A DNA stretch of 63,983 nucleotides, the filler included, from Hausera hauseri (lineage: Eukaryota): assembly GCA_046269625.1 (NCBI GenBank). It is 13 parts of 13 records of this genome, joined end to end, with 100 filler letters (N's around TTAATTAATTAA, not from the genome) between each part and the next. Parts side by side here need not be neighbours in the genome. Positions count along the whole stretch, not along the records: positions 10,308 to 14,806 come from JBJURY010552561.1; positions 14,907 to 20,656 come from JBJURY010195526.1; positions 20,757 to 25,684 come from JBJURY010389368.1; positions 25,785 to 32,081 come from JBJURY010116098.1; positions 32,182 to 36,928 come from JBJURY010451246.1; positions 37,029 to 41,870 come from JBJURY010417033.1; 7 more parts are not named here. One strand, 5' to 3'. Position numbers and translations under genes: made by a program. Positions within the stretch are counted from its first letter, which is position 1, and the number at the start of each line of letters is the position of its first letter. The notes beneath the pieces are model-generated. The model made no database searches. It saw nothing but the letters and a program-made list of their open reading frames with translations, and was not told where the DNA came from. This document shows positions 13,111-40,676 of the stretch, one piece after another.

Positions 13111-13121
13111 TTCTGACACCA
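13111..13121 (-). promoter_or_regulatory. Putative tRNA-Leu primer-binding site
   Basis: TGGTGTCAGAA lies 1 nt after ..AATAAAACCACA. Confidence 0.5.
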
Positions 13122-13122
13122 A

Positions 13123-13962
13123 TGTGGTTTTATTATTGCAATGACAGATTTCATTAAATCCAAATAACAATTATAGGATATATGAATGCAAATTAACACA
13201 GTTAATCTTTTATTACAATAATTTTTTTAAATTCAAAACAAAACTGTCAATTTATCAATCATGTATATCAAACTCATATCTGCTGTATTTATCTTTATTC
13301 TTTGAATGTACGATCTTGAAAACACTTGTACATTTTGAAGTGAAATGTTAACGTCTAATTCTCTGCTTCGAACAAAAGATTTCATTTTCTTTTATCTGAC
13401 CAAATTTTCTGCATGAACGACTCATAAGAGAATAAACCTCATTAGAGAATAAACCTCTATGTCAAATATTTTCATTTGGAAACACAAAATCTTAGACATC
13501 TTTGTTTTCTCAATTATTTGGTAAAACATTGGCAACAAAATTAACATCATGGACATAAGTACAATAATCTAAGATCAGTATGTTAAAGTCAGATTGTTGA
13601 TTGTTTATTTGTGGAATCTGGAATAGAATCTATTTTCAGGTCATTGTTCGAAAATTTGATGGATAATTTTATTTTGGTAGAACAATCATGAATATTCGAT
13701 CAAAACTTTTACTGACGTATCAGTCGACCTGTCTTTGAACTTTATTGTGATCTTTCCATGTAGTTGTATCGTATCAGGATTTTTATCTCGGACGGGAAAC
13801 CCGAAATTCGAATGATTGTGATTCAGACGAGAAACACTGCACGACGAAGCAGAACGACCAAACCGCCCTATTCCTCGACAAAACAGTAATCAGCAGCAAC
13901 AACAACAACAAAACTATATTAAAAACTATATTAAAACAGCATGTAACTTGTTAAGCACAACA
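13123..13962 (-). repeat. Putative LTR of CsRn1-like element (TGTTGTGC..AACCACA)
   Basis: Follows PPT GGGGGAGGGTGA (13963-13974); ends at ACA before a PBS-like site. Confidence 0.55.
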
Positions 13963-14097
13963 TCACCCTCCCCCGTGTCAAAAGTGGAAACTATAAGGAT
14001 AAAATCACGAAGTAGGATTTGTGGTTGGACTATGATGAACTATACAGAGAAGATGAAATGCAGGCTGAAAATTACGAGGTAGATGGTTTCTATTTGA

Positions 14098-14806
14098 TTA
14101 TTCAATTTTGGTGTGAACCAGACGTTGAATACCTTCATCATTTTTTACTTTACTGTACTTGCTAAAAGTAACAGTTTTGTGCACTCTTTGCTTTAGTTTC
14201 CGTTTGTTGCGATTCTTTGGAAGGGAAGATATTGCAATCTGTCGCATTAAATGTGGTATCATGCTGAAACAAACTCGGAGAAGAAAAAGCAGTGGTCGAA
14301 AAAAAGGTGGGAGGAGGAAATGGGGAAATGGTGGGAGTAGAAATAGTGAGTGGAGTAGGTGTGCGAACAGAAACAGGAACAATAGAAACTGTAGTAGGAG
14401 TAGAAGCAGGGGTAGAAACAGAATGAAATGTAGGAGTTAAAAAATTTGCCTGAGTTTCAGTTGGAGAGGTGTCATCCACAAAAAAGGCAGGTTTCACATT
14501 ATTTATATGGACTGTTAGTTCTTTTCTGTCTTTAAGGATTATAGCGTTGTGAGAAAATAGTTGAACTAGCATATAAGGCCCGAGATACTGCGGTTGAAAG
14601 CCACACGGTGTTTGATTACGCAGCCAAACAAACTGTGCAGAATACAAGTCGTCAGGTAAATATGTTTTATTGTTGTGTAGTATTCTACAGAATGAGTCTT
14701 TACTGACTTCAATGAAATGGTCCTGTGCTGCTTTGATCTTTTCATCTGTAGGCGTATTATCTAGTGCGGTTAACTCGAACAAGGAGCGAACAGGTGTTCC
14801 AAATAA
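14098..14806 (-). pseudogene. CsRn1-like integrase C-terminus with S/T-rich tail
   Basis: FQPQYLGPY, VHINNVKPAFF, terminal KTVTFSKYS..EGIQRLVHTK. Confidence 0.85.
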
Positions 14807-15051
14807 NNNNNNNNNNNNNNNNNNNNNNNNNNNNNNNNNNNNNNNNNNNNTTAATTAATTAANNNNNNNNNNNNNNNNNNNNNNNNNNNNNNNNNNNNNN
14901 NNNNNNTTGATACAGACGCGCCTATTTGGATAGATTACGAATAGGTCACAGAGACAAGAATCCAAAATTTTAAACTTGTAAAACATTTGAAATTTTGGAC
15001 ACTGAACCAACACAGATAAACAAAATTAAATATTAAACAGAAAATTTGTTA

Positions 15052-15602
15052 TTAATGCGAATTCTGATGCTGCATTGATTTTGATAACACTTCCATGCAC
15101 GGTTCAATTTCCGTGGTGCTTAAACCTAAGTAGTTTTCCAAATGTATATCTGTTATTGAAGTTCTGTATTTAGATTTTAGATACTTCATTTTGGAAAATA
15201 ACTGTTCACATCTATTCGTTAAAACGAATAAGTAAATAATCATTGTTATCAACTACATTTAGGAATTCTTGAGCATATAAATTTTTATAAAATTTATGTA
15301 CTTTCAAATTAAACCTTTCTATTAAATCTGCCCTCTCTTTGAGATCCAAAAGTACCATTTGAAACTTTTTAGGGCCATTTTCGATTTCTCCAATTGAAAA
15401 TGGAGAGGAAAATAAATTAAAATAAACACTTTCTTCTAAAAATCTACAAAACTTTCATCAAACTCTGAACTAAGATCTTTAAGTTTTTTAATATACAATT
15501 GTGAATTATATTTATCACGATAGTTCGATAACGTTGAATAATGAAATAAATTTTGTAATATATAGAATTGCCGTAAAATCAGCTTACATTTAAAAGCTTT
15601 AA
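15052..15602 (-). mobile_element. hAT (Charlie/SPIN/GTF2IRD2-like) transposase C-terminal remnant
   Basis: IKAFKCKL..; CEQLFSKMKYLKSKYRTSITDIHLE..QHQNSH dimerisation motif. Confidence 0.8.
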
Positions 15603-16694
15603 TGTGTCTTTGGTTCTTCCATTTATTGTATATGTCGGATTAACAAGGATGATTTTTTTGTGAGACAGATATTCCTTTTTGAAAAAGAATTTCGAATGAA
15701 ATTAAGCACTCAAATATATCTAAAAATCCGCTGTAAAATAACAAGAAATTGTATAGACAAAATGGCTTAAATAATTTATTGATTAATTATTTACATATCT
15801 AAAAAACTCCAAGTTGGAGTATTAAAACAAAAAGTATCACATTTATTTCAGAAACGTTCTTTTTACCCGCATTTCATTTTTTTTCCGGCATTCGTATACG
15901 ATTAAAGAATAATTGATGCGATTGATTATAAAAAGGGAAATAAGATTTCGTTGAAATTTAGCAATTTCCTGGATTAAAGTCACATAGCCATTTGTCGTCT
16001 CAATATGACCATCGTTAAATGCTTTTCTGATGATAGATATTACCCAACGTATAGGAACAAAAGGTTGAGCATGAATTTGTGTTACATTTTCTAGTTATTC
16101 CAGTTCGTGGGGAAATAGTAATCCTTCTGTAAATTAAGATTGAAGATTTGGAAACTTTTCTTTGAATTGAATGCTAATTCTAGACAAACAAAGATTTAGT
16201 GCCAAGAGAAAATAGCGACCACAGGTTCGTCGTAAAAGTCTATGCTGAGGATCATTTGTATGCCAATGTGTTCCACGGAGTTGGAAGCGTTTGATATTCC
16301 ATGGCAAATGGACATCGTAAAATACAAAACGTTTATAGACCAGCGATATGGAGATATTGAGAATAAATGAAATTTTAATCAGATCAAGATTTTTCTAATT
16401 TGTCTGACGACAGCTTCAAATTGTTCTTAATACTTTTCACTCATTTGATATTTCTATTCTAACCAGTTTAACAAGACTACCATCCCATTGAGTGAAAATA
16501 ATTTCCAAAAGTAAAATGGTTTTGGATTACCGGCTTCTGAAAAATATGATACTGTCATAAGGAGTATCGATTTTGATAGGACTCGGCGAAGGAGACCGGC
16601 ACGGTCCGAGGCCTGGGACGCCATTGAGGCGATAACAGGCGCCCGACGTCGCCCAGACACCCGGCCGCGGGGCGTGCAAACGGTTGGCACCGCA
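15603..16694 (-). repeat. Putative cargo-bearing LTR (TGCGGTGCC..AAGACACA)
   Basis: Starts right after PPT GAGGGGATAG; the likely end has AATAAA then ACA at the point where hAT homology begins. Confidence 0.55.
15893..16558 (-). pseudogene. best: Bestrophin N-terminal half, apparently intronless, decayed
   Basis: MTVSYFSE..FWKLF/QWDGSLVKL, FEAVV..LDLIKISFIL, LPW, RLLRRTCGRY, KEKFP, FVPIRW match bestrophin MTITY..WRGSIYKL, LIPISFVL, RLLRRTLIRY, KRFP, WVPWVW. Confidence 0.85.
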
Positions 16695-19600
16695 CTATCC
16701 CCTCGTAGCAAAGTGTAAACTATAAAGGATAAAAAAGAATAAAAGAAAGAAATGCGCGAAACAGGAAAAAGTACATATGAAAGTATATGTTGAGATTGTT
16801 GTATACCCTTGTGATTTTAAAATGAAGTGTCCTGGAACCTTACTGTTTTTTGTGTGGTGTGAGTGTCATATTTGATTGAAAAGCATTTTGGGTAAATCGA
16901 ATGTCGAATTTTGGGTTGTGTTGTGTAAGGGTGGCGATAGAAGATGAGGAGATGAAGAAGAGGAAGTAAACATGGCTGGAGGAGGAGCAGTAGAGGTGAA
17001 AGAGTCGGTGAGGAAGATTGGGGAAAGTGAAAGAGTTGAAGGTGGAAGTGTAGACGTTTGTAAGAGAGTGAATTGAGCAGAATTGTGGAAATGAAAATCA
17101 GCAGCTGTGTGAACGTTTAAGGTTGGAGTATTGTGAAAAGGTGAAGGAGATAAGATGAAAAAAGCGGAAGAAATTTGGTGCTTTGGTGGAGGTTGGTGAG
17201 GTGGATTAAAGAATTGGACCGAAATGGGAGATAGTGAGGTCGATGAAGTGTTAGGCAAAGTATGTGAAGTAGTGGAAGGCGACGAAGGTTGAGATAGAAT
17301 AGCTGGTTGCGTAGATGTTTGTGAGTACTGATTATCAGATTGACTTTGGGTGTTTGCGGAGGTCGACAAAAGAGTAGTTTCAGCTGAAGTGGTATCGTCA
17401 ATAAAGAAAGCTGGTTTTAAGTTACTAAGATGAACCTATTGTTCTTTGTTGTCTTTAAGAATGATAGCGTAACGGGAATGAAGTGAAAGTAGTTTATAGG
17501 GGCCAGTGTACCGTGGCTGAAAACTGACCGGAGTTTTTTTATCCAAACGAATTTAGCTGTGTAGAGGTCGTTAGGAATGTATGGTCGATTGTCATGTAGA
17601 ACTCTGAAAAAAGCGTCTTTACTGATAGTGACAAAATGTTCTTGGGCCCCCCGAATAGTTTCATCAGTAGGTGAGTTGTCCTGTGCAGCTAACTCGAAAA
17701 GGGCACGTAATGGTGTGCCAAATAGGGCCTCCGACGGGGAGCAATCGGTTGATGTGGATGGGGTGTTTCGCCATCCAAGTAAGACAAAAGGTAAAAGGTT
17801 TACCCATTGGGGATTGTGTTCAGCTAGGATTCTGAGACAGGTTCTCATTGTACGATAAAAACGCTCTAAAAGGCCGTTTGACTGGGTGTGGTAGGGTTTT
17901 GTGTGGATGTGGGATATGCCCAGTCGATTTACTAGTGATTTAAAGAGACTCGACTCAAATTGGGGACCTTGGTCGGTGATGATGTGTTTGTGTGAGCCGA
18001 ATCGGCTGAGCCATACACGCATAAAGGAGTCAGCTATGGACTCAGTGTTTGTGGGTCGAAGTGGAACTGCGTCTGGCCATCTAGGCGAACGGTTCATTAG
18101 GGTGAGGATGAATTGGTGACCGTTGTGTGGTGGAAGAGGGCCGCCGATATCAAGGTGGACAGTATCAAAGCGTGACGTACAGGGAAAATGATAAAGTGGC
18201 GGCTTTAGGTGTTTAGTGATTATGAATTTTTGGCACGCCGCACACTCCCTAACCCGTGCCTGTACGTCTGTTTTCATTGATGGCCATGTAACTTGGCGTT
18301 TTAATAGGTGATATGCGGCCTTGGATCCTGGATGGTGTAAGGCATGAATGTTTGTAAAGGCTATTTTTTGGACAGATGGAACTAATATGATTTCAGGCCA
18401 TCCAGGGTTGGTGGTATTGAAGGCCACGCCATTAATGATTACAAAAGATTTATAAGAAGTGAGAGTTTCATCATCCGGTTGATTCCGTCGAAGCGTCTCG
18501 TTGTCTAGAATTGGTTTAAAAGTTACCGAGTCAACTAAACGTGACAAAAAATCAGGTACAACGTTGTCTGTGCCGTTTGTATGTTTTATTGTAAAATTGA
18601 AAGTTAACAAATAGGGTATATGTCTCTCCTGGCGTAGAGAGGGAGATTTCATGTTGAAAATGTGTAGCAGCGGCTTATGGTCTGTTTGAATTGTCAAGGT
18701 GCGTGATATTAAGAGATGATTAAAATGCTTGACTGCGAGGACCATTGCTAAAAGTTTTCTGTCAAAGGCAGAGTACTTTTTCTCTGTTGTAGTAAACTTT
18801 GTAGAAAAGAACTCTAAAGGTTGATGCGTGTTATTTTTAAATTGGTGGAGTACTGCACCTGCAGCGATAGTTGATGCGTCCGTTGTAAGAAAAAGTTCGG
18901 ATGTAGAATCTGGATAGGCTAATATTTCTACTGTTTTGAGATTTGCTTTTAGGTGTTCGAAAGCATTAACAAGTTCAAGTGTCCAAATAATAGGCTGTTT
19001 CTTTTACCAGCGCTTAAGGTAGCAAATGGAGCGGTTAATGTAGAACAATGCGGCACGTATTTATGAATAAAATGCAAGGTACCGAGGAAGGAACGCATTT
19101 CTGAAGTTGTGCGTGGTAATTGAATGTTTTTCAGTTGCGTGATGCGGTCTTGTTGTGGAGCGTGTCCGGTTGGAGTAATAATGTGTCCGAGGAAATTAAT
19201 TTTTTTGTTTAAAGAAGGAGCATTTTGCAAAGTTTACTTGGAGATTGTTTTGGTGGAGTCGTTTGAAAACAATGCGTAGGTGCTCAGTATGCTGTTTAGA
19301 GAATGAGGAGGCAATTAAAATATTATCGATGTAGGGATATGCGAAGTCTAAGTCTGCCAGGACGGTGTCTATGTGCCTTTGAAAGGTTTGGGCTGCACTG
19401 CGTAAGCCAAATGGCATGTATAAATATTTAAAAAGTCCGAAAGGAGTTGTTACTGTCGTTTTTGGAATGTCGGCTGGTGCTACAGGGATTTGGTGGTATG
19501 CCTTATAGAGATCGATGTTTGAGAAAATGGTAGAGCCGTAAAGTCTATGTAGGATGTCATTAATTAGAGGCAAAGGGTAGACGTCCATGGTTGTAATCTG

Positions 19601-20656
19601 ATTCAATTGCCTGTAGTCACCGCATTGGCGAAAAAAATTGTCCTTTTTTGGGACAACATGTAATGGTGAAGCCCATGAAGATTTAGATCTTCTGATGATG
19701 CCTAAGTGTTGCAGTTCTGAAAACTCGGCTTCGACTGCGTGTCTGCGACGTGGGGATAATGGTCGAACTTTTTGTCGTATGGGTCTCTCGTGTTCTGTGA
19801 CAATATGATAAAAAGTGTGCATGGCTGGTTTAAAAGCTTTGTCTTTCTGCAACAAACGAGTGCAAGGAGAAGATACACAAGATTGCAACTCCAGTGGAAG
19901 TGATGATAAAATGGTTGACGGTGATGCTGATGTTGCGATTTGTTTAGCGTCAGTTAGGGAAAAAGTTGTACTATCAAGACTAGGTGGAATTTGGTGCAAT
20001 ATTGTGGAATTAAAAATGGTGTTACGAGCGGTTTCGTTAGCAAAAGGCGTCAAAGAGTTAACATTATCATATTTGTCAACTGTATTATAGTAGTCTCTAA
20101 ATAAGGGATGATTATAAAAATAATTTAAATCAATATATGATTTTTTAAGAGCAGGTTGAAGACCAGTGATCGCCCGCTCGATCACCGAAATGATGTTCAC
20201 GGAATTAGGTTGTTCAAATTTGTTTGAGTTAATCAAGCAACATCGTCTGCAATCCACCATTAGTTGGTAATGGGACAGTAAATCTAATCCCAATATAGGA
20301 GTTTGGACATTGGCAACTGTAAATGTCCAATTGTGTGTTTTTGTTATGTGGTAATGTAAAGGTGATATTGGTAGTGCCGAATATGTTTAATTCTGCTCCT
20401 GATGCAGTGAATAATTTTTTGTGTAAATGTGTTTTGTTATGTACCTCATATTTAGGAGGAAGCAGAGAGACAGCTGCTCCAGTGTCTATGAGGAAGTTAA
20501 TGTTATGTTTCATTGGAGTAACAACAGTTGCCTCCAACGTAAAAACTGCAAATGTTGTGTTTCGGCTGTTATTTTGTAAAGTGGAGCCTTTGCTAGAGGT
20601 GGCCAATGACTCTAGCGGCGTCAATAGTTTTTTTGTGGTGTTTGGTATTGTTTGTT
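16695..20656 (-). mobile_element. pol: CsRn1-clade Gypsy pol (PR-RT-RNase H-INT), degenerate
   Basis: FLIDTGA, WASPLHVVPKK, YIDN (YxDD), TDAS, TDHKPL, HHPG..CAACQK, DQGPQFES. Confidence 0.92.
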
Positions 20657-25000: not shown

Positions 25001-25684
25001 ATATATTCGACATCACTTTACAGTTACGTGTCTATCAGAAGTAGTAGAAGATGTCATCGGAAAATGTGAAGAATGCTTATGTCGGAAAATCTAAACAGAA
25101 AAGAAAAAAGAAAAGTTCATTCGTATTAAGAGTGATAATTTTCTGTACCAATTGATAATGGATATTGCGTATGTCGGAGACAAAGATTGCATGTATCTGT
25201 ATATGTTGGTTATTACCGATGCGTTTTTAAGGCAGGTGATTTTAACAAAAATGAGGACGCAGAGGAAGAAATAGTTATCGAATGCAAGCTGGTGAAATCG
25301 ATTTACAGATTTGGAAAACCGAAGTCAATCTTAACGGACAACGGTAAGTGTTTTTCTGGAAGCAAGTTTAGAGTTTTGCAAGGAATAAGGAATTAAGCAA
25401 ATTTTTAGCAGTCCGTTTTAACTTCAATATAACGGGTTGGCAGAAAGGGTCATTCGAACTGTTCGGAATATGTTGGTAACCATTACAGCAGGAACATTGG
25501 GTAGAGCATGTGGAAATCACTACCAAATATTGAATTTTCGATAAATGCCGCAGTCCAAAGCACAAAGGAACATTTGCCGTTTGAAGTTGTTTTTAAATGA
25601 GAAATTAATTTGCACGCAGCTGGAGGAGTCACAAGACAGACCGATAACGGCACACTGACATAAAGTAGTACAAGACATATTACA
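22100..25684 (+). mobile_element. Heavily degenerate Ty3/Gypsy element (gag-PR-RT-RH-INT)
   Basis: MFLDSGASVSVI, FSRIDLGKAY, LDTDASFGAIG, H..H..CEECL, ILTDNGK. Confidence 0.85.
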
Positions 25685-26290
25685 NNNNNNNNNNNNNNNN
25701 NNNNNNNNNNNNNNNNNNNNNNNNNNNNTTAATTAATTAANNNNNNNNNNNNNNNNNNNNNNNNNNNNNNNNNNNNNNNNNNNNGGTAAATCGACAGATT
25801 GCTGTTGCACGGTCGTTTCGTTTAACTTTAAATCCACGTTTAATTGTTCTAGAGCATCAGAAAGTTTATCCAAATTTTCACCCAAAAGCAGTTTTACACG
25901 ATAACTGTACTTAAGTGCATATAGAGACACGGGATCATTCAATGAAATCAGTATGGGCATTTGCAAAAAATGCATTTCGTACTTACGAAAAATTCGTTTC
26001 GGTAAAAATGTGTTTGGCGTGCCGACGGTTCTGATTTTCGTTTACGTATTCCAATCATTGCATTTTGCCTCTTTGTGTCGGTTTTGCTGCTGCTGCTGCT
26101 TTCTGAGCAAGATTCTGTTTCGTTTCCAGACAATCAATCTGCAAACAATCACCCGGTTTTTATAACTGTTGGACAGGTGGTTCAAGCAATTTGACATTAA
26201 AATTGTCCTTCTTATAGCCAAACAACCACGGCCAATCTGAACTTTCATCATTGGCATCATTAAGTAGAATCGTTTTATCGTTGTCGTCGT

Positions 26291-26789
26291 CTACCATGGT
26301 AGTAATGTCTGAATGGGCATGGGAATGGTATTTATAGTTTGTTGTTGTTGTGCACAATGTACATTATTTTGATTCACTAAAACATTTACGTGGTTTTTAA
26401 TTTGATTAATAATCGGTTCATAATCCACTGTTCGAATACCGAGTACAATTTTTCCACTGTTAAACACTGACACAGTCTCAGTGCTGGAAGCAGTTCGGGT
26501 TCATACGTATATTCAGTAACGGCCATTGATAATTTGTACAAATTGATTGTTTGATAGTCTTTCGGTCGTTATTGATTGGATTTTGTCAATGACAATTCCG
26601 AATGGTACTTGTTTATAAGCTGTGATTGGTTTGCGACAACCCATAATACGACACTTTCCCGATTGAAATACGATGCATGTAAAATCCGGTGGACACTTGA
26701 AGACAAACTGCCTCGGCTTCCATTGATTAAAAGGTTGTGTGTTAATGTCACACTCGGTAACGTCCGCGATAGTTAATATTAGCTAACAT
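26291..26789 (-). pseudogene. TATA-binding-protein-like gene of the Maverick
   Basis: TCIVFQSGKCRIMGCR, INLYKL..YEPELLPAL, VFNSGKIVLGIR match the two TBP repeats (ALIFSSGKMVCTGAK; YEPELFPGL; IFVSGKVVLTGAK). Confidence 0.75.
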
Positions 26790-26894
26790 TATGGAAACAG
26801 TGTTTATACTATAGCTATTTATATATGCGTGTGTAACACGATTACAAACAAATTATGTGGTGAGAAAAGGTTGTAGTATTACTATTATTATTAG

Positions 26895-27520
26895 ATGAAG
26901 TTGCAGAATGATGCCATTTTCCAGATTGTATGCCCCAGTGGAAGTGTGTAAATTATTGCAGAACTACCGTGACATGTTCCATTCAGCAATATACAATCAC
27001 ATACTGGCATCAGGGTGTTGGTGATGATGGTGAGTGCGGTCTGACAAATCGGGAATTTTGCAAATTGAAATCGATAACGGTAATTGATGTGTTTGATGAG
27101 AACTGGTCTGAAAGATTATGCAAAGGTGACGTTATTGTCATTGACGATTTATTTCAGGAAGCCGCGAAATAATCGGACTTCAACAACCTATTCACGAAGA
27201 TCGCACGTCAACGTGGTGTGACTGTTACTTTCATTACGCAAAACATGTTCCATCAGGGCAGACAGCATCGAACAAGAAATCTAAACGTACACTGTTTGGT
27301 GTTGTTCAAAAATTCCCGTGATCAAACTATCATTATGTTGCAAGACAAGTATTTCCTCACAATCGAGCCTACTTTATAGATGCATATCATGATGCTACGA
27401 CCGAGCCACATGAATACTTGTTCATCGACTTTACACAACAGTGTCCCGATGACGTGTACAAACAGACATTTTCAATCAGAAAGGTGCTGTATGTGTCTAA
27501 ACATTCAAAAATCGACGACA
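26895..27520 (+). pseudogene. A32/FtsK-like packaging ATPase (Walker A deleted in this copy)
   Basis: VIVIDDL, LFTKIARQRGVTVTFITQNMF, RTRNLN..LFKNSRD, EPHEYLFIDF. Confidence 0.85.
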
Positions 27521-27753
27521 TGATTATGATAAAAATGAAGAATTTCCAAAAAACCATTGTTAAACGTAAACCTACTACCAAGCGGGTGTCCAGCGGCAAG
27601 AAACGTGTATCAAAACGAACCACCGCTACAGTCAAAAGGTTAATCAATTCTGTGTTTCACCGAACAACAGCAGCAAGATGCAAATTACCATCACACTGGC
27701 AACGGTTAAACAACTACGTCTCATCAGAAGCATCAATACGTCCACAAAAAACC

Positions 27754-28075
27754 ATGCGATTCAAACGTAGTCAGCCATACTTTATTGCTTTGCTCAAGGC
27801 ACCTACGAGACATAAGCGAAACATGCTGCGGTCATTCCCACAATTTGTAGTAGACGATTTGATAAAAATTTTATACATTATCGTTGTGTCAGGTTGACAT
27901 TGGTAGTGCAAAGCGGAATTTATTAAAGTATCGAAAACGACTAATTGGCCTTGCCAACTCCCGTAGTAAACGACTAAAACGAGAGGTCATGTAGTGGCAA
28001 GACGGCGGACGCCTTGGTGCAATTCTACCGATTGTTACGTCATTATTGGGTAGGCTCATTGGTGGAAAAGTTTAG
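27754..28075 (+). pseudogene. Small basic Maverick virion-type protein ending QDGG-hydrophobic helix
   Basis: ..KREVM*WQDGGRLGAILPIVTSLLG; homolog at 52110-52440. Confidence 0.5.
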
Positions 28076-28184
28076 TATAAACGATGAAGGTAAGTATAAG
28101 GTTATTTGCTATATGGTGCATGGTTCTCATCTTTCTGTCCCAGTTTATCGAATCTTTCATTTACGTTTCGTTCAAATTGTTGTA

Positions 28185-29241
28185 ATGCAAGCAAAACCGA
28201 CACCATCGACGGCAAAGATGGGCGATGTGTGGTTCGACCCGCGTCATCCGGTCGGGTATACTGCTGTCGACAAACTGGCAAAGACTGTCAAACAGACTCA
28301 GCGACAAACCCAACGTCGGCTCGGGAAACAGTTACCATACAGCCTAAACAAGCCGATAAGGCGATTTCCAACTCGTGCATACCGTGTTGCCGGTGTAAAT
28401 AACGTATGGCAAATGGATCTAATGGAAATGATTCCGTATGCCAGCATCAACGATGGGAATCGCTACGTGCTGACATGCATTGATGTGCTTATTTGTTTTG
28501 CACGTGCAATTGCCGTGAAATCTAAATCCGGGAGAGATTGCCGACGCTGTTCAGACACTAATACAACAACAGCCACCGAAGCATTTACAAAGAAATTTGA
28601 ATAAGGAATTCTACAACTCCCACGTTGAAGCGGTCTTGAAACGGTTCGGCGTAAAACACTACTCGGTGTTTTCCCAATACAAGGCTGCACTCGTTGAACG
28701 ATTTAATCTAACATTGCGCGGTCACCTAAACAAATTCTTTACGAAGCAAAGCAACAAGCACTTGGTCGATGTACTGCCGGATATTATTCATGCATACAAT
28801 CATTCAACATATCGTGGCATCAATGAATTACGGCCGGTTGACGTAATCGATGATATGGACATGTGGCTTTATCAAAACCGAACACAACGACAAACAATTA
28901 AACGCCCAAAATATAAAATCGGTGATTATGGACGTATAACAAAAATATGTACGACACCATTCATTAAGAATTTCAATCAGAACTGGAGCGATGAGGTTTT
29001 CCGCATTTCAGCAATCAACACAAAACAAACACCTGTCATGTACGCTTTAGAGGATGAAAACGGTGAGGAAATATGCGGTAAATTCTACGAACAGGAATTG
29101 CAAGTACTGCCCTAAAAACCCGATGTATATCGTATTCAGGAAATTCTACGTTCACGCGGCAAAGGTTTGAATAAACAATATTTCATCAAGTGGAACTGAT
29201 ACACTACACCGAGTTGGATGTTTGCATCGCAGATTGAGTGA
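28185..29241 (+). pseudogene. Maverick retroviral-like integrase with C-terminal chromodomain
   Basis: WQMDLMEM, YVLTCID, KEFYN, KAALVERFN, NWSDEVF, GKFYEQEL, YRIQEILR..YFIKW..SW. Confidence 0.9.
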
Positions 29242-30297
29242 TGAGCATTTATTTGAAACTTAATAGTAAGTGATTATCAGAACATGACAACAATACCGCT
29301 GAACGGTTTACCATGACGTTGGACCCGCCGCTCGACTTACGCCACGGAGTCTGGGAAGTGGCTTTAGCGGAATTCACGTTTACATTTTCATTAATAACTA
29401 CGTGAGAACAGTGGAATATACTATACCCTAGTAAGACAATCTCCTGCATCTAGTCGTTTGCAGTTAGTCCAAGACTCTAATGGAACATTTTACGTTCGCA
29501 ATTACAAGCGGCAATATTTCCCGGTTTATTTTTCATTTAAACAATCGATTGGTGCTAAAACACAAACATACGATTGAATTGCAATTTAAATCACTAGCCG
29601 ACTCTCAGGCATTGGGTTTTCAATCATCTGCCAATATGCGGTCAAAAGGTCTACAACTCGGTGGACATTGTATAATTAGTGAAAAATTGAACGTTTCCCA
29701 AAAACACCATGAAAACCACCGATATTACAGTGAAATGGCAAAAGACTGAATCATTTTTTACTCTCATACAACAGGAATGGGTTTTCTTACGGAAATGAAA
29801 ACATAATTGTGTACAACTATCAAGGCAGTAGCTAAATTGGCTCTCGAGACATTTGAATTAAACTCTGATGGTCGTATTTCGTTTACACTACACGATAATG
29901 TTACATATTTTGCCTATGATGAACTATTGGCAAGGAATCTGGGTTTTAAGAAACGAGAATTCGGTCAAACCGGCGCCGGACTGCCCATAGTTGCTAAAAA
30001 AACCGTCTCTACGAAACATTTCATCGAATCAATATTTTAACGATCTAACCGAACCCGTATGTCGGCAGGCACAAAAAACAACTATCGGCTTCTATTGGAC
30101 TGGATCCGGACACGTACAAAACACCGGGCGAAACTGCTCATGTAAATATCATCCGGCCCATGAATTTATCGTTGTCTCACAATGTTCTGCACAGTATTTC
30201 CATGCATATAGTAGACGAATTTTGGAAACCCATTAAATTTCTGTTTAGATCAACGACACATTTGACGTTACATTTTCGACGTCGTCAACGTCGATAA
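29241..30297 (+). pseudogene. Minor capsid protein (penton-like), copy 1
   Basis: MSIYL..PPLDL..WEVALAEF; C-terminal LTLHFRRR. Confidence 0.7.
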
Positions 30298-30336
30298 TAA
30301 ACAAACTACGTCATCATCACCATCATCATCGAGATC

Positions 30337-31396
30337 ATGAGTATTTACATGGTGTTACCGAGCAACAGTTGTCCGACTACTCGTTCGAACAATTCCGCTA
30401 GTGAATACGTTGCAGATTGGAACAATCCTTTGGATTTATTTACTGGACAATGGGAGGTTGCACTGACGGAATTTAACTTTCCCTACGCAACGGTAACATT
30501 AAAAGATAGTATGAAAATAACGTACAACAAAACTGTTACAGAAACCAAAACACATTCGTGTCCTCTGACACTTACTAACAATAAAATAACAATTGGAGAA
30601 TCGGGCATTTGCACGACAGAAGCAAATTACGGTATATTCGGCAAGATCGGTGTTTTTATTATAAATCCAAACTTACATTTTATGGAAGATTTTGAATTTA
30701 CCGTTACCTTTGAGTCCTCTGAGATGACTCAGAAATTTGGATTCAAAAATATAAGGTACAAAGATAAAGATATTAAAAGTGAATATGCAGTTGCTCCTGT
30801 GTATTACCAGACAACGGTGAAATTTACCTACACAACAGAAAAGGTGTCGACGTCATACGTATCGAATGGAGACCATGTCTATTTTGAATCTGTAGCACAT
30901 CTCTGTTAACACTTCTTTAAGTGAAAAGTACAAGGCGATATTTACAGTTTCCGAGTCAGATGCAAATGGGTACATTAAATTCGAACTGGCTAAGGATATT
31001 GTTGACATTTCATTGGACAAAGCTTTGGCCATGGTATTGGGTTTTGAAAAGCACCGGCTTGAGACATCATATACGAAGACAGGGGCGGAGATGGCAAATG
31101 TTGCAACACTCAAACCCAAACTAAAAACGGGACTAAGTCAAATGTACATTTACGTGAATGTCACCGAACCGATTTTGGTCGGTGGAGTACGTGTACCGCT
31201 ACTCTGTACAATTTATCCGGAAAGCAGCAAATATACTGCCGGCGACAATGTCATTGTCAATCTCGATAATCCAATGTATCTGCCTGTGGCATCCACATCT
31301 ATAATCAATGTTGAAGTAAATATCCAATGTGACGCGGGCTACCTTATTGAATTTCCGTACTGTACCACAACCAGTATCACTCTTCATTTCCGTTAA
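30337..31396 (+). pseudogene. Minor capsid protein (penton-like), copy 2
   Basis: YMVLPSNS..WEVALTEF; MYIYVNVTEPILVGGVRVPLL; NPMYLPV; ITLHFR. Confidence 0.85.
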
Positions 31397-31403
31397 ATAC
31401 AGC

Positions 31404-31769
31404 ATGATTGACTCTGAAATCGTTTCCATTTACAGTAAGCCTCAGCAGGGTGGATAACTGTCGTATTTCGTTGGTAAACAGTATGGCTCCGGATGGTTAC
31501 GTACATTAGCACATTTAGCAATTCCGGTGTTGAAGTGTGTCGGTGCCATGGCAGCAAAAACAGCACAGGACGTACTATATGAAAACAACTCGATTTTACC
31601 ATCACTGAAGAAACATGCATTGTCCGAAATAAAAAGCGGTGCACCGGGAGTCGTTGAATCAGTCAAAAAACAATTCGTTGGCAGTGCCTTGATGATGAGA
31701 AAACGCCGTAGAGCATCATCGAGTTCAACAGCTATAAACAAACGTCGTCGTCGTACGATTTTCGATTGA
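31404..31769 (+). pseudogene. Small pVI-like virion protein
   Basis: QQGG and QYGSG sites, amphipathic GWLRTLAHLAIPVLK, basic tail KRRRRTIFD. Confidence 0.55.
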
Positions 31770-31784
31770 TTGACAGATAGACAA

Positions 31785-32081
31785 ATGGCATCTGCAAAAT
31801 ATGAATTGTGTACACTGGACAAAGGCGCACCACAAGTTGTTATTGACAATACGGCATTTGAAGAAATCTACCCCGTTGATTCGGTTTCAACGGATGATAA
31901 CATTAACATTCAATTCAACATTATGGCATCGGACAATGATATCTGGATTTGAACGATACGCTACTCTATGTAAAAAAAAACTGTTCAAAAAGATGCATTA
32001 ACAATTCTCGCTGCAACAGACACTGTCACACCGGCCAATTACTTTTTCCTCACACTGTTCCAGGAGGCTTCACTGACTCTG
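31785..32081 (+). pseudogene. Maverick major capsid protein N-terminus
   Basis: FEEIYP..IQFNI..LNDTLLYVK; matches 34312-35535. Confidence 0.8.
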
Positions 32082-32181
32082 NNNNNNNNNNNNNNNNNNN
32101 NNNNNNNNNNNNNNNNNNNNNNNNNTTAATTAATTAANNNNNNNNNNNNNNNNNNNNNNNNNNNNNNNNNNNNNNNNNNNN

Positions 32182-32760
32182 ATCTCGATCAAAGTGTATT
32201 TCGTTATCTATTCGGTTTCTCTGATCATTTCTGCGGTTATCATTTTTACGTGAATCAAAATTTTTCTGATCATTTTCAAAAAATCGATTAACGTTTTTCT
32301 GTCCTTTTGGTGCGGCAAATGATTCTATCATTTGGGCCTATTTACGGCATCAACAAAGTCACTAGGATATTTTGCCTGTACTTTATATTTCAATTTTGTA
32401 CTTAGTCCGTTCAAAAATTGAGTGAGCAATAATATGTCGGTATTTAATTATTTTTTCATAAAATTTCTTTTTTCTTTTTTCTACATCTAGTCGGACTGCT
32501 TCGACGTATTGGGAGACAATTTGTCATAGAGCATAGGCATATAGGGTGGCAGATTCATTATATTGCTGATGTCTGTTTTGTAACTTAATCAATTGTTGGT
32601 GTGGGGATAAGGTAGGATAGAACTTGTCAATAAAGGCAGTCTGTACGTTATGCAATTTGTCCTTTTCTTCATCTGTCAATTCATTGTAAGCCTCAGCTGC
32701 CATGTCTGTGAGGAACAATGGTAGTCGTCTGGCCATCTCGTTCTCTTATAAACCCATAGC
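32182..32760 (-). pseudogene. gag: Gypsy gag remnant
   Basis: RRLPLFLTDMAAEAY..F..QQYNESATLYA; QFLNGL. Confidence 0.65.
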
Positions 32761-33310
32761 TATAAGTAGGGGGGAGTGAGCGCTCCACCGCACTTCTCTG
32801 ATTGATCAGTCGACCAATTTTCTCCACATGATTGGCTATTTCGAGCATTTCGAAAATTTTCTCACAACCCCTCCCCGCGGGGACACGCTTTGGACATCGA
32901 ACCGACTCAAATCGGTAGAGCTCGACAATCTTAACAAAATTTAATAGCGGTGCGGCTTACAGAAATGTAAGAGAGAGGCGCTAGAACAGGAAGAATCAAA
33001 ACAGGAAATGCTAACGTGTAACGTGAAACATGGTGGTAGCATGGAGACAATGTATACAAAGGATAAATCGATGTTGGCGAATCCAATGGACATGGTTGCA
33101 ACTTAATCAGACAATGGGAACATGGGGAAAAATCTATGGGTAAATTTCAAACTAGGAAAATTTCCCCTTACACAAGTCAAACGGTGATGGAAATGGGTTG
33201 AGCATATAGCCCATCAGTAGTTCTGCTAGGGAAAAAAAAGAGTTCTGGACCAAAGGGGGGTCCATCCACGCACCAATTGATTAATCACAAGCGGCTCGCA
33301 TGCTGATTCG

Positions 33311-33671
33311 TCAATTCGACAACGGCGAGTTCATTGGTGCGGTTGGTTTTTGCGTGTCGCAAAAGACAAATCCAAGAAAAATGCAAAAGAACAAAACGAA
33401 CTTTTTGCAGCAGCAAAATGTGAGCAGAAGTGGATAAGAGAAAGTATAGAGTAGAGTATGGGCGTTCTAATGATGTGTGAAACATTGGGTTCGCATGTTT
33501 GGGAAAAGTGGAAAAGTCGGTCAAAGAGAGAAAAAGGTGGCGCCAATGAAAACGCAGGTGAATTTCAATGGATTCATTAATGTTAGCGCCGGTAGGTGAA
33601 TGGTTTGTGTTCAAATCGACAACGGCAAGTTCAGTGGTGCGGTCGGTTTAGCTTGTCGCAGAAGATAAAGC
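33311..33671 (+). repeat. Imperfect direct repeat of about 60 bp, two copies 300 bp apart
   Basis: tcaattcgacaacggcgagttcattggtgcggttggttt (33311) vs tcaaatcgacaacggcaagttcagtggtgcggtcggttt (33611). Confidence 0.8.
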
Positions 33672-33890
33672 CGGGATACGACGAGTTGACACGTGCAATG
33701 GTAAGGCGTAACGTTAAACAAGTGTTCGTTACGCACCAGACATGCCTGCATGCAAAACGAAATAATGAGTTGTGACGTAAAGCGTCTGTTTGTGCGTGTA
33801 GCAAAGGGACGTAGAAGTGATGGCAATAATAACGCATGTATAACAAAATACTGTATTTTTCTCAAAATGAACACAAAGTACAATCATTGT

Positions 33891-34200
33891 TCATCCAAGT
33901 ATCTGTAATGTTGGCCACAGTAAGCAGTAATGTCCACACAATACGGTCAGTGGATGTTGATAATGAAATAGATTGTATTCAACACGATATGACGCTGGTG
34001 ATTGTCTTTCAATTTGAGAAACTAACGATGACGGGTAGTAAAATCCGAGTGGATCGAATACTCTGACGACGTTGGTCAGATGGACGTACACAGCAATCCA
34101 ATGTTCACCTGGCAACAATGAAGTTTGTGTATTGACAATAAAGCCGCCAGTCTGTCGTAAATCACACCACGAAATTTCGCACCCAAGTTCAGTTTTCCGT
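33891..34200 (-). pseudogene. Adenain-type cysteine protease of Maverick
   Basis: VNT..PGEHWIAVY, FDPLG, YQHPLTVLCGHYC. Confidence 0.88.
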
Positions 34201-34311
34201 ACTGACTGCGCTCAGTGGAGCTAAATGTAAAAGAATGTAATAGTAATCAAAATAAATTTCTTCATAGCACCACGACGGCGAAGAAGAAGAAGAGGTGCGG
34301 ATTTTATTTAT

Positions 34312-35535
34312 TTATGCAATGACGGTTCCGTATTTCATTATTTCAACCTCGGCATCAAATACACCGTAAATGTACATCACGGTAAACTGCTCCAACGCTT
34401 TAGCAAAGTGACCCTCCAGTCTCTGTTTTCACTGGTGAGATAGTTGAGTCTGTTCAACGTCATAATTTTCAGCTAGTACAAAGGTGAAGAATGGATAGGT
34501 GGATTTGAAAAAATCCACCGATATGCTATTGTTGATATTTTTGTTCAATGAACCCATGTTGCGCACGATAGATTGCATATATGTGCAAACATAATCGCCG
34601 GTCTCGAAATCCTGCTAGTATGTCTCAACGAAATTCGCATTCGACCCAAACCGATGTAATTTACATTGATATGGGTAAACTTTTCCGAATCGGTGGTATA
34701 ACTTCCCGTTTGTTGAGCAGTCGTTTGAAATGTAACGAACACAAATTTTGGCAATCGCATGTCGCCAAACAGTGCATCTTTGTAAAATGTAGTTGAACCT
34801 TTTGGTATAGTGTAAATCACGAGTTCTATGCGTTGTAATGGGTAACAGGCATTTTGTTTTTTCCAAGCCCAATTGATGTCCCATGGGCACAGATTGTTCT
34901 ACCTTTACACGACGTACGTATAATCGTGCCCCGGTAATTTTCAGAATGGGTTTGAGATTTGCAACTGCAGTTTTCAAACATAAGACATTGTCGCTGAGTT
35001 TGAGTCGAATCATGGATTTAACACCAGGCAGCAGGTATTTCGGCTGATCGAAAAAGTCAAAGTACAGGGGTCCACACATCGTAAGTGCTTTTGATTCTGC
35101 CACCCATGCCTGACGGTTTGCAGCTGTGGCGTCATATCCGATGGTTTTCGTCAAATGAGTCGTTTTCGTGTCTGTACTGTAATTCAGAGCCGTTTCAGTG
35201 AGTGCTTTGATACTGAATAAACTGGTGTTGTCTTCAATTTTGAAGCTGTTTAGAGTCATTGAAGCCTCCTGGAAAAATGTGAGGAAAAGGTAGTTGGCCG
35301 GTGTGACAGTGTCTGTTGCAGCGAGAACCGTTGATGCATCCTTTCTAACAATGACTTTTACATAGAGTATCGTGTCGTTCAAATTGAGATATTCATTGTC
35401 TGATCCCATAATGTTAAATTGAATGTCAATGTTATCGTCCGTTGAAACAGAATCTTCTTCAAATTCTGCATCGTCAATAACAACTTATGGCGCGCCTTTG
35501 TCAAATATACACTATTCATATTTTGCAGAAGCCAT
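34312..35535 (-). pseudogene. Maverick major capsid protein (double jelly-roll, PY)
   Basis: GPLYFDFFDQPKYLLPGV, ARLYVRRVKV, RLPKFVFV, C-terminal YIYGVFDAEVEI. Confidence 0.85.
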
Positions 35536-35541
35536 TTAGTA

Positions 35542-36928
35542 TCAATCAATCGAAAATCGTACGACGACGACATTTGTTTATAGCAGAAAAGTAGCTGATC
35601 TACTACGTTTTTGTTTTCTCAAGCCACTGCCAGCGAATTGTTTTTTGACTGATTCAACGACTTTCGGTACAGTAGTTTTTATTTCTGACAAGGCGTGTTC
35701 CTTCAATGATGGTAAAATCGATTTGTTTTTATATATTACATCTTGTACTATTTTTGCTGCCACGGCTCTAATACGCTTCAACACCGGAAATTCTAAGTGA
35801 GTCAGTGTACGCAACCATCCAGAGCAATACTGTTTACCAACGAAATACGGCAGTTCACCGCCATACTAGGGTTTAGTGTAAATGAAAACGATGTCAGAAT
35901 CAATCAAGTTGTTCGTTTCGACGGAAATGAAGATTCAGACTGGTTGTGGTACCGTACAGAAATTCAATAAGGTAGCCCGGGTCACATATGATATTGACTT
36001 CAACATTGTTTATAGATGTAGTTGCCACAGGTAGGTACATTGGATTATCGAACTTGACAGTGACATTGTCGCCAGGAGTATACTTGCTGCTTTAAGGATA
36101 AATTACACGCAGTAGCGATACGCGTATTCCACCAACCAAAATCGGTTCGGTGACGTTCACGGAAATGTACATTTTACTTAGTCCAGTTTTCAGTTTGGGT
36201 TTAAGTGTTGCAACATGTGCAGCCGTCTTCGTATTCGACGCCTCAATCCGCCGTTTTTCAAAACCCAATACCATGGATAAAACTTTGTCCATTGAAATGT
36301 TGAAAATATCCTTAGCCAGTTCAAATTTAATGTACCCATTTTCACCTGACTCAAAAACTTTAAATACCTCCTTGTACTTTTGATTTGAAGAAAAGTGTTG
36401 ATAGAGATGTGCTACAAATTTGCAATAGACATTGATTCCAATCTATCCGTATGCTGTATAGGTAAATTTCAGCGTTGTCTGCTAATATACGGGATTTAAT
36501 CTGCGAACAACTGCATATTCACTTTTAATATGTTTACCATTGTACTCTGTATTTTTGAGTCAAAATTGATGCGCCATATCAGAGGACTCAAAAGTGACAG
36601 CAAATTTAAAATCTGCCATAAAATGTAAGTTTTCCCCTAAAATAAAAACACTGATCTTGCCGTATAAACCGTAATTTTTACTGGTCGTGCCAATGGGCGA
36701 TTCTCCAACTATTATTTTATTGTCAGTAAGTGTCAGAGGACAAAAATGCGTTTTGGTTTCAGTAACAATCTTTTTGTACCTTATCTTCATACTATCTTTC
36801 AATGTCACTGGTGCGTAGGGAAAGTTAGATTGCGCCAGTGCAACCTCCAATTTTCCAGATAAATACAAAGGATTGTTCCAATCTACAACGTATTCACTAG
36901 CTGAATTGTTCGGAAGAGTCGTCGGACA
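35542..36928 (-). pseudogene. Maverick pVI-like gene and minor capsid copy 2 (second element copy)
   Basis: Colinear homology with 30337-31769. Confidence 0.8.
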
Positions 36929-37988
36929 NNNNNNNNNNNNNNNNNNNNNNNNNNNNNNNNNNNNNNNNNNNNTTAATTAATTAANNNNNNNNNNNNNNNN
37001 NNNNNNNNNNNNNNNNNNNNNNNNNNNNCTGACATCCTTAAATCTTTTAAATCGTGCAAAACCATCGACGGTGTGGCCTTTGACACCTCCAAACCTAATA
37101 ATCCTTTCTGAATCGCTTCAAAAAGAGGCATTCAACAACATCCATTCGTTGCACCATCCTGGTGCCAAGGCCACTTTTCAACTCTTACAACGCCAAGTAG
37201 TATGGCCGTCGATGCGCTCTGACGTGCAGGCATGGGTCAGGCAGTGTGTGGCATGCCAAAAATACAAAGTTACTAAGCATTTAAAGCCACCACTCTATCA
37301 TTTTCCCTGCACGTCTCGTTTTGAATCCGTTTACATTGACCTTGTAGGCCCACTACCCTTAGACAACGGCCATCAGTTCATCCTCACAATGATGGACAGT
37401 TCCTCGCGATGGACAGAGGCTGTCCCGCTTCGGAGCACCAATACAAACAATCGCAGACGTTTTCATCCGCACTTGGATCAGCAGGTTTCGATCACCTCGC
37501 CACATCATTTCGGACCAACGTCCACAGTTCGAATCCAACCTGTTTAAAGCTCTTGTCAATGGATTGGGAATTAACCACATTCACGTCACTATATCATACC
37601 CAATCGAATGGCCTTGAACGCTTTCACCGAACGATAAAAACGTCTCTCAAAATCCTTGCTGAGTCTAATCGCAGTTGGACTACACTGCTTCTGTACGTTC
37701 TGCTTGGCTGGCGGAATACACCATCTACTTCTACAGGCTGTTCACCTGCAGAAGCATTATTTGGCACTTCCATCAAACAATTATTCGAGCTGACTGAGCT
37801 GGACACTATTCCTACAGATGAAACCATGCAAGCGGCACAGACACTTCGTTGAAATCAGCAGACTCATTTTGTAGACTATTACACGGAAATAAACCTTACA
37901 TACCCGACGATGTATATACTGTAAAGTTCGTTTGGTTAGAATCAGACGCAGTGTGGTTTTCAACCTCAGTATGTCTGCCCGTACAAAG

Positions 37989-39264
37989 TGTAGTGCCCAC
38001 ATTCACCCAATAGGTGATGTTAAAAAAAATTTTTATTGAATTTTTAAATAGACTATTCGAAAGAAATTTTTTCTAAAACAATTCTAATTCTGAGATACAT
38101 GTCGGAGTCAATTTATTTTCGTCTATTCTTCAAACAATTTAGCAATGACAATGGGGAAATAAGTCCCGATGCTCTTTAGGCATTGTCCAAATGCTATCCG
38201 GACGTTGATAATGATAAAATAATGAGGGTCTAGAAAAATTGGCAAGCCAATCCACAAATCTGGAATTTCAAAGCCATTCAATCGATAGTTATTCTAAATA
38301 ACAAGTTTACTGCGCCAAAAACAGATGATTCAATTGTTCGGAGTAAACAATCAGTGACGATAAATCTGACGAACAAAACATCATTATTCACGTCTGATGA
38401 ACCAAAGAAATTGAAGATTTCGTTTGTACAAAGAAACTCCTTGTCAAAGAAATGCGTTGCTTCGCTCATTATTTTTCAGCGGAAAGTGAGTCATATGAAG
38501 ATGTTGGCATATCAGTCCATTGTGATATCAATATATTTGACTGGCTCATGAAGTGTTAGAAGAGAACAGTTGTCAGAATGCGACAGAGTATCAGTTTCAT
38601 CATTAAAACCAAGTAATGTTTCGATATTAATATCATCCGACTTTTTAAAAATGGATACTTTGGTTGATGATTGCATCGAATACATTCATTCGAATATAAA
38701 TGATCTGCTGTCGACATCGTACAACATAAATTGTGTAAATTCTTCGCTTATCGAAAAGATTGCAGAACGATTCACTGATTTAGAAATAGATGCCATTGTC
38801 GACGAAAAAGATAAAATAAGAAATAAATTATTTCGAATCAAAATGGGGCAGCTAAAGTCTGATAATATTCCTGGTGATTTGTACGTCATTACTGAATATC
38901 CCGAAGATGGACACTATATTACAATCACTGATCCATCAAGTGATACTATTTTTGAACGATTAGGTAGCATTGGCGACAAAATTCAAATTGAAATTATGGG
39001 CAATTCAGTGGAATATAAAATTGAGGGTCTTAATGTTGATAAAACTTGTCGACAAACCCGTGTACTTTCATAATTCTCATACGGCTAAGTCCAACGAAAC
39101 GTTCAATGGTCAACCGGTCCAATATATAATGGCAAACGATAGCATCGGGCCGAACGTAAAACAATCTGATGGTGGCGGTAATGAAGAATATGCCGTAGTT
39201 GAAAGAACCGTGTTAATCGATTCAAGGAATAAACAAATGGCTTCACTAACTGAAAAACCTCACA
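37989..39264 (+). mobile_element. 1276-bp solo-LTR-like insertion (TGTAGTGCCCA..CCTCACA) with 5-bp TSD CAAAG, filled with host gene fragments
   Basis: CAAAG at 37984-37988 and 39265-39269; TG..CA termini; start resembles LTR start TGTGGTGCCCA at 40302. Confidence 0.85.
38080..38845 (+). pseudogene. SANBR: SANBR/KIAA1841 (SANT-BTB, DUF3342) fragment, apparently intronless
   Basis: IIHV..EDFVCTKKLLVKEMRCFAHY..VGISVHCDINIFDWLM; LKPSNVSILISSDFLKMDTLVDDCIEY..NINCVN..DEKDKIRNKLF. Confidence 0.85.
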
Positions 39265-40301
39265 CAAAGTAATTCGTTTACACTCCCACATCATCATCCT
39301 GAAGGACGACAAAGTAACAGTCAACATCAACAACGCTAAACCGGCTTTCTTCATTGACGACATGTCGCCCATCGAAACCACTTCATCAACATCTTCACAC
39401 GACGCGCAGCAATCCAACAATGCACCTTCCATCTCTGCTCAATTTCTTAATCCACTTTTGCCTACGCTTTCTCCCAAGACTTCTACTTGAATTTCTTCTG
39501 ACAATTCAGCCTCATTTTTCCCATCCGATTTTGCACCCTAAAGCCTTTTCACACCTGATAACAACCTGCGTTCTCCTCTTACAATACCTCCTCCATCAAA
39601 TACCACTTCGACTTCACCAATCTCTCCATCCATCCCTCTCATCATTCCAGCCTCTTGCATACCACCCTCCAACTACTTTCCTTCGCCTTCTCCATCTTAC
39701 TCTTTTCCGTTTTGTCCCTCTTCGCCGTTCTCTCTTTCTCCTTCCACACCTTCCTCATCTTCGGCGCTTTCTTCCTTTCTCCTCACACATCATTTTTAAT
39801 CCCCTTCATTTCCGCTCCGCAACTTCCCCTTTTTACTTCTATCCCTCTCTTCCTCTCTCTACCACTACCTCTGTGTCATCTTCCACTTCCGTTCTTTCAC
39901 CCAATTAAATTCCGACTTTTACTCCAACATTTTCTCTTTCTTTATCCGTCACTACACCTTTTATCATTCCTTCATCTTCTAACACTCTCTTGAATACCTC
40001 TAATCATCCGTCTCCAACAATCTCTTTCTCCTTCACCTTTTTTTATTCTGATTCATCTTCGCACGACACAACACTTACCACAAAATCCGACAATTTTTTC
40101 CCCAACTTCAACCTCTGCAAGCAAACACATCGCATAAAGACAAAACACGCAGTCACATTTAGCAAGTATAGCAGGAAAAAATCAGTAGAAGGCATCCAAC
40201 GTCTTGTCCACACTAAGACCAACTGACAGTTTTTCGTTTAGCGATTTTTTCTTGCCGTCTATTTTGGTCTTCATAGTTTTCACTTTGCCACGGGGGAGTG
40301 G

Positions 40302-40400
40302 TGTGGTGCCCATAGCGGCCGGCGCCCTTTGGCCCATTTGATTGGGCACGGTCGGGCTTCCTTTGCCGCCGCGTCGGGCCCGATCTCCCTCCTCGAAAGT
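40302..40400 (+). repeat. Start of 3' LTR (GC-rich); right boundary not determined
   Basis: TGTGGTGCCCA directly after the PPT. Confidence 0.7.
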
Positions 40401-40469
40401 GTCTTAGAGTACTGAGAAATTTTCCACTCTTCCAAGTGTTCTGGAAAGTAGTCAGTTTAGTGATGTAGT

Positions 40470-40676
40470 AGATTCTGTGTTCAAATATTAAAGAATGTTG
40501 TGTCAAAGAAATCGAAATTTGTAAAATCATTTTACTAATTGGTTAGAGTTTTTCCAGCTTCATCTTTGAGAATTCACAGAATCGAATTTGACATACTTGA
40601 TAAAAACGATTATTCACCAGTTTTCAAGGAAATTTATATCGAAGTGCAAAAAGTTGCAGAAACAATTGCAATCTAA
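40470..40676 (+). pseudogene. Protocadherin/cadherin EC1-EC2 junction fragment
   Basis: LC..ECC....C..LRIHRIEFDILDKNDYSPVF..VAE (DxNDNxPxF motif). Confidence 0.55.

Follow-up and report, generated by a model that had tools for sequence, protein, structure and literature searches.

Host-gene fragments in sense orientation behind LTR starts of decayed Gypsy elements in Hausera hauseri

The DNA analysed here (the window) is a stretch of 63,983 nucleotides from Hausera hauseri, made of 13 contigs (c1–c13) of 3.9–6.3 kb with spacers between them and a GC content of 33–40%. Broken copies of a Gypsy retrotransposon pol gene are common to c3, c4, c8 and c13, and pieces of host genes lie behind long terminal repeat (LTR) starts of these decayed elements. 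The c4 copy comprises protease, reverse transcriptase (RT), RNase H and integrase in this order (17394–20561, minus strand; domain search). Pairwise DNA identity among the copies is 64–73%, so they represent separate, divergent subfamilies, which corrects an earlier interpretation of the same DNA, hereafter the sequence-only reading, that had taken three of them for copies of one family.

A pre-LTR motif occurs three times in the window, at 13970–13994 (minus), 16700–16723 (minus) and 40273–40296 (plus), with 0.00 occurrences expected and none in 100 shuffles, in agreement with what had been claimed. Behind each copy come a purine tract and then an LTR-like start in TG (13962, 16694 and 40302), and a fourth LTR-like start, at 37989, agrees with that of c8 at 10 of 11 letters. 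In c3, motif and polypurine tract (13963–13994, minus) come after the 3' end of the integrase and its tail; in c4 and c8 they are continuous with a GC-rich LTR start (16575–16723, minus, by motif scan and alignment; 40273–40400, plus, by motif scan and depth). The proposal of a common LTR start is upheld by these four positions, but the 9-mer consensus taken alone is weak (7 matches against 3.0 expected). The GC-rich tracts of 105–118 bp behind the c4 and c8 starts align weakly with each other (3 of 300 shuffles as good at 250 bp, 22 of 300 at 140 bp), and the other five pairs of LTR starts gave no alignment (at least 17 of 300 shuffles), so that similarity does vanish after the start, as had been noted, except between c4 and c8.

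The firmest case is a solo-LTR-like insert of 1,276 bp within the integrase of c8 (37989–39264, plus strand; 37984–39269 with its flanking repeats). It begins with TGT, ends with ACA and is flanked by a 5-bp target site duplication (TSD), CAAAG; both flanks align to c13, where a single CAAAG marks the empty site, and a contig of the public sequencing run X1 joins 37981 to 39263, the insert being absent. An AATAAA stands at 39228, 37 bp before the end (LTR-end and AATAAA conventions as in PMC3601003), and the insert has neither a terminal inverted repeat longer than 3 bp nor an end-to-end direct repeat. Inside it lies a 3'-truncated fragment of SANBR (38099–38860, plus; Pfam and protein alignment), which starts from the first methionine of its homolog and is colinear with record P0001 from the first residue over 756 bp. 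The closest records are 63–68% identical and the best named matches are molluscs, which marks the host as an animal; no poly(A) tail was seen behind the fragment. The location of SANBR within a solo-LTR-like insert had been recognised correctly, although the alignment begins 110 bp into the insert and not about 90. The 3' part of the insert (38860–39264, plus) drew no identification in database searches. Here, the cargo has LTR-element sequence on both sides, whereas in c4 and c8 such sequence is found on the upstream side only.

In c4, a bestrophin fragment (15885–16558, minus; Pfam E 2.5e-28) runs in the element's sense from its start codon, truncated at the 3' end and interrupted by stops and frameshifts. 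Its ATG is placed 136 bp into the LTR, just as the sequence-only reading had it, and the piece corresponds, with no gaps in the alignment, to residues 70–205 of a solved BEST1; a run of eight A's follows it at 15877–15884. Farther along the same strand lies another fragment (15090–15400), presumably hAT-transposase-like, to which Pfam lent no support.

The mosaic in c8 is made of several sense pieces. An EC1-type protocadherin fragment (40418–40676, plus) matches weakly over 40542–40676 (best PDB E 0.015), yet all ten PDB matches are protocadherin-type by title or entry; upstream of 40542, from 40418 on, we presume it by eye. It is followed by the C-terminal end of TBP with its stop codon (40864–40947, plus; 28 codons, weak, E 0.32) and by an N-terminal fragment of CPSF2 (41264–41464, plus; E 3.5e-9, Pfam). 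An acidic, serine-rich frame between the protocadherin and TBP pieces (40700–40863, plus) looks coding and has no match. After CPSF2, the zinc-knuckle gag of another element breaks into the mosaic (41490–41870, minus), with very high depth in X1 and in a second run, X2.

In c3, the LTR-like segment of 840 bp (13123–13962, minus) also runs from TGT to ACA, with AATAAA near its end; it terminates in AATAATAAAACCACA, and one base past its CA end there is a primer-binding site (PBS)-like TGGTGTCAGAA (13111–13121, minus; one match, 0.04 expected), which is presumably a primer site of tRNA-Leu type and is not the Trp site of CsRn1. The body of this segment gave no credible Pfam match, no Atlas match, no PDB match for a 52-residue piece and, for one of three frames, no match in 1.84 billion representatives. 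A weak resemblance to DEPDC5 (13518–13742) had E 0.71, then 0.023 after post-hoc narrowing, a value inflated by a doubled chain. Beyond the segment, on the same strand and in sense, lie fragments of Dispatched (11500–13043, matched over 11946–12416 with E 1.3e-16 and presumed from resemblance outside these limits) and of DPAGT1 (10308–10934; Pfam, protein alignment), the latter broken and reaching the contig end. The content of the c3 LTR, to which the sequence-only reading had given no name, thus drew no firm match here either, but the DNA farther along did. Between the two genes lies a sense tRNA-type T-arm hairpin (11409–11426, minus; sub-gathering score, E 5e-4 to 6e-3); ARAGORN found no tRNA. 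Residues 77–285 of a DPAGT1 homolog fit within 600 bp. The nearest record, P0034, is short of about 46 residues that the window shares with all three of the other homologs compared, which would read as a skipped exon in a relative's gene model and is the only hint on intron loss.

The cargo list is therefore longer than the bestrophin, protocadherin and SANBR first named, with CPSF2, the TBP end, Dispatched and DPAGT1 added. The five firm fragments (bestrophin, SANBR, CPSF2, Dispatched and DPAGT1) all lie in the element's sense, as had been claimed, and so do the weak protocadherin and TBP pieces; by locus this gives 4 of 4 (p 0.06), with 10308–13050 read through on the minus strand only. Reading the DNA beside the LTR starts through Pfam yielded four host genes in 8.4 kb (27 translations); the 24 translations of control DNA, 7.6 kb in all, gave no credible host gene and one sub-cutoff match, and 75 further segments gave four sub-cutoff matches only. 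The pieces of bestrophin, SANBR and CPSF2 each begin where the coding region begins and break off before its 3' end, and at least two parent genes contribute to c3 (Dispatched and DPAGT1) and to c8 (CPSF2 with the weak protocadherin and TBP). Against homolog proteins, no intron-sized gap was seen in 408–756 bp of bestrophin, DPAGT1 and SANBR.

Contig depth in X1 and X2, runs of unrecorded kind, covers c8 and separates high from low only, not being a copy number. In X1, the integrase stands at 9,600–122,000, the SANBR bins at 97–136 and the 3' third of the insert at 3,083–3,445, and the bin of the c8 LTR start reaches 15,648 and the next six 30–140. X2 has the same shape (SANBR 2.7–9.8, 3' third 25–39, LTR-start bin 151, next bins 0–2.7). 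High-depth element ends thus surround low-depth cargo, which indicates that the cargo was not amplified and that each capture happened rarely or only once. At nine listed positions of SANBR, the in-frame stop among them, every X1 contig departs from the window, as would be expected of an intact parent gene. One X2 contig shares the 3' part of the insert from 38919, preceded by 128 other letters; together with the depth step, it places the left edge of the high-depth 3' part anywhere between 38860 and 38919, for which reason the 6-mer GGTGAT near both sides of SANBR was dropped as a TSD of SANBR.

Our preferred explanation, to which we give a probability of about 0.5, is that these are decayed Gypsy copies with mosaics of host-gene pieces, all in the element's sense, behind their LTR starts, probably acquired through RT template switching onto co-packaged mRNAs and back. 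Capture from RNA is favoured because of the sense orientation, the multi-gene mosaics, the 3'-truncated pieces, the codon-level colinearity without intron-sized gaps and the enclosure of one cargo within TG…CA ends and a TSD. Minus-strand DNA primed at the end of the element would copy U5 and R, and the nascent strand would then switch to at least one cellular RNA, or to several in turn, before re-entering the element's U3 within about 20–135 nt of the polypurine tract. The resulting LTR would consist of a constant start, the cargo and a constant 3' end, and would be inserted by integrase; recombination could afterwards leave a cargo-bearing solo LTR. We infer the RNA intermediate and the switching itself, and likewise the position of the c4 and c8 cargo inside rather than behind the LTR. 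Template switching as first proposed thus agrees with the sense mosaics, the 3' truncation, the colinearity and the ends and TSD of the SANBR insert. Such captures seem to have happened repeatedly and independently, and most look like dead ends. Taken as a whole, the pattern is a real feature and likely a positional variant of LTR-mediated retroposition; the case for it is solid at one locus, plausible at two others and unsettled at the fourth. A stronger version, with U3 as a cargo bay in which RT routinely runs through at least one host mRNA at first-strand transfer, so that most insertions would carry a different mosaic in both LTRs, seems doubtful to us.

Several observations weigh against these interpretations. 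The per-copy claim is based on four LTR-like sequences from divergent subfamilies, of which one (c3) has no firmly identified cargo and two (c4, c8) have no visible 3' end: none was seen within 1.8 kb behind c4 or 1.2 kb behind c8, and the 3' part of the solo insert gave no clear alignment with the regions behind them (6 and 5 of 100 shuffles). An identifiable LTR 3' end occurs only in the SANBR insert and c3, and no mutual alignment of LTR 3' ends was obtained. No 5'/3' LTR pair of one insertion is present among the four sequences. Given pol divergence of 64–73% identity, unalignable LTRs are no surprise, which leaves the host-gene content as the thing in need of explanation. The host may itself be intron-poor, and the suggestion of intron loss draws on homolog proteins rather than the true parents. 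Depth covers c8 only, in two grades, and among 15 of 74 joints none connects the c8 LTR start to the 3' part of the solo insert or skips SANBR. Finally, both GC tracts carry AAA near their end, as short CsRn1-like LTRs would, and the duplication around the solo insert is 5 bp long, against 4 bp in CsRn1-like elements.

This last point bears on the CsRn1-like label given to the family by the sequence-only reading. CsRn1-like Ty3/gypsy elements (PwRn1, AgCR1-14) have a CHCC gag signature, LTRs of 146–407 bp beginning with TGT and ending in AAA or ATA, a 4-bp TSD and a Trp PBS, according to PMC2582038. The CHCC motif CX2HX9CX3C is present in c13 (63793–63846, minus; motif scan), whose pol DNA is common to c3, c4 and c8, and the order protease, RT, RNase H, integrase is likewise shared. 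In contrast, the solo insert (1,276 bp) and the c3 segment (840 bp) both end in ACA, the duplication differs, and the sole PBS-like site behind a family-linked LTR, TGGTGTCAGAA, is not the published Trp site, in a window without the 5' end of the gag-bearing copy. The pol and gag therefore appear CsRn1-like, and because the solo and c3 ends depart in TSD and LTR ends, and perhaps in PBS, we would not file the LTR-bearing family as a CsRn1 member; the solo insert is tied to the pol family by its 10/11-letter start match alone. In metagenome contigs, the two best matches to the family integrase among the best 80 of 300 loci are CHCC/Trp-PBS elements, the best segments being 24–38% identical, and the LTR pieces have no counterpart among these 80; the pre-LTR motif had 0 occurrences in the metagenome contig scan. 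Near-complete CHCC/Trp-PBS Gypsy elements (L001, 1–4966; L002, 1–5356) carry AATAAA 136–137 bp upstream of the PBS. Viral-contig scans returned no relative of the family, and the closest proteins in the protein search were P0014 and P0020 (59–62%).

The solo and c3 ends, which depart from the CsRn1 pattern, could come from a second LTR family that made the mosaics; c4 and c8 would then be CsRn1-like LTRs, either short (about 100–125 bp) or truncated, beside mosaics that were already in place. For c4 and c8 this comes close to the case that the sequence-only reading had named as its own refutation, an LTR of about 100 bp with flanking DNA behind it. We regard such a two-family account as possible but improbable. 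It gains from the published CsRn1 dimensions, from the drop in X1 depth from 15,648 to 94 immediately past the c8 GC tract and from a by-locus orientation p of only 0.06–0.125. It is weighed down by the GC tracts themselves, in which neither AATAAA nor a common terminal motif was found, while L001 and L002 carry AATAAA before the PBS. Moreover, the solo start matches that of c8 at all but one of 11 letters, the gene pieces of both c4 and c8 start no more than about 20 bp from the GC tract, and control DNA holds no such fragments.

Capture at the DNA level in an intron-poor genome, by a Helitron- or Pack-type process or by gap repair into a broken LTR and without an mRNA intermediate, is unlikely. 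It could draw on maize Helitrons, of which 68% hold at least two fragments and in which sense orientation is favoured (78.6%; bioRxiv 10.1101/777037), and on the GGTGAT near both sides of SANBR. However, the SANBR insert, the only one examined for such ends, shows LTR-type TGT…ACA ends with a 5-bp TSD and neither inverted repeats beyond 3 bp nor end-to-end direct repeats, and both the lack of intron-sized gaps in three genes and the weak sense tRNA-type arm in c3 speak for RNA. It is very unlikely that the junctions arose without a recurring process, as isolated rearrangements within old, decayed copies or as chimeras of short-read assembly: although the window consists of contigs of 4–6 kb with heavily broken elements, and no X1 or X2 contig spans the c8 stretch, the pattern is seen at four loci, the SANBR insert is precisely bounded and flanked by a TSD, and the stops, frameshifts and deletions of the fragments, with X1 differences that are mostly transitions, point to old DNA rather than misjoined live genes.

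If capture by template switching is correct, both ends of the element would receive a copy of any cargo that lies in the LTR, and such cargo would be kept as solo LTRs and held near the element's promoter and poly(A) signal, where it might be transcribed and contribute to silencing of the parent genes; known LTR-mediated retrocopies are rare and replace internal open reading frames (ORFs). The cargo-bay version would add a genome-wide source of exon shuffling and of host-matching small RNAs. At a rate such as the one seen here, four loci among 13 contigs, template switching could be counted within one genome, in its sites, packaged RNAs and frequency. Should the LTRs of c4 and c8 prove short, the source of multi-gene sense mosaics and of one cargo-bearing solo LTR would still call for explanation.

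The window contains other elements as well. Four pieces (25785–32081, 32182–36928, 51384–55804 and 58483–59935) are 77–83% alike and carry an integrase; presumably they are Polinton/Maverick-like. Among them are a TBP-like ORF (53413–53856, Pfam E 1.9e-5) and a dUTPase (54755–55207). This TBP-like ORF, in c11, lies in DNA common to c6 and was not counted as cargo. A Gypsy of another family occupies 46529–51283 and 1–4122, with long extra ORFs past pol, one in each ending in a transmembrane-like stretch and that of c1 resembling fn3 faintly (E 0.08); at the end of c10 stand an LTR, a PBS-like site (50967) and the start of gag. Units of 8 and 12 bp form a long tandem array over 55866–58350, and a GC-rich island of overlapping ORFs without Pfam match lies at 45100–46000 in an otherwise AT-rich contig. 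At 4223–5300 there is a non-coding, repeat-like stretch, blank in the Pfam scan, which may resemble fish-type repeats.

Our findings are closest in kind to LTR-mediated retroposition as described in PMC5131818 (Tan et al. 2016), where partial, 3'-truncated retrocopies without L1 hallmarks, sometimes of several genes, are joined to LTR-element sequence. In the 15 Drosophila cases reported there, the copies had lost more at the 3' end than at the 5' end and the cargo took the place of part of the internal ORFs, whereas here the cargo starts 110–136 bp into the LTR, and a solo-LTR-like insert encloses one of the pieces. In the open full-text literature, we found no animal Gypsy family reported to carry recurrent host-mRNA mosaics in its LTR, and the supplements or non-fly parts of PMC5131818 may hold switch points in LTRs. 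Gene capture by maize Helitrons, Pack-MULEs and Sireviruses (bioRxiv 10.1101/777037) is alike in the several fragments per element and in the sense bias of Helitrons, and cross-talk through small interfering RNAs has been proposed for the captured fragments; only 3% of Sireviruses have fragments, however, with no orientation bias, and the insert described here has LTR ends and a TSD in place of Helitron or TIR ends. The nearest LTR-located precedent is BARE-2 as described in PMC13317346: in BARE-2/Veju chimeras, an abnormal switch between co-packaged RNAs likewise put foreign sequence into the LTR, but the insert came from another retrotransposon and was later amplified, whereas in H. hauseri it is host coding sequence, locus-specific and of low depth.

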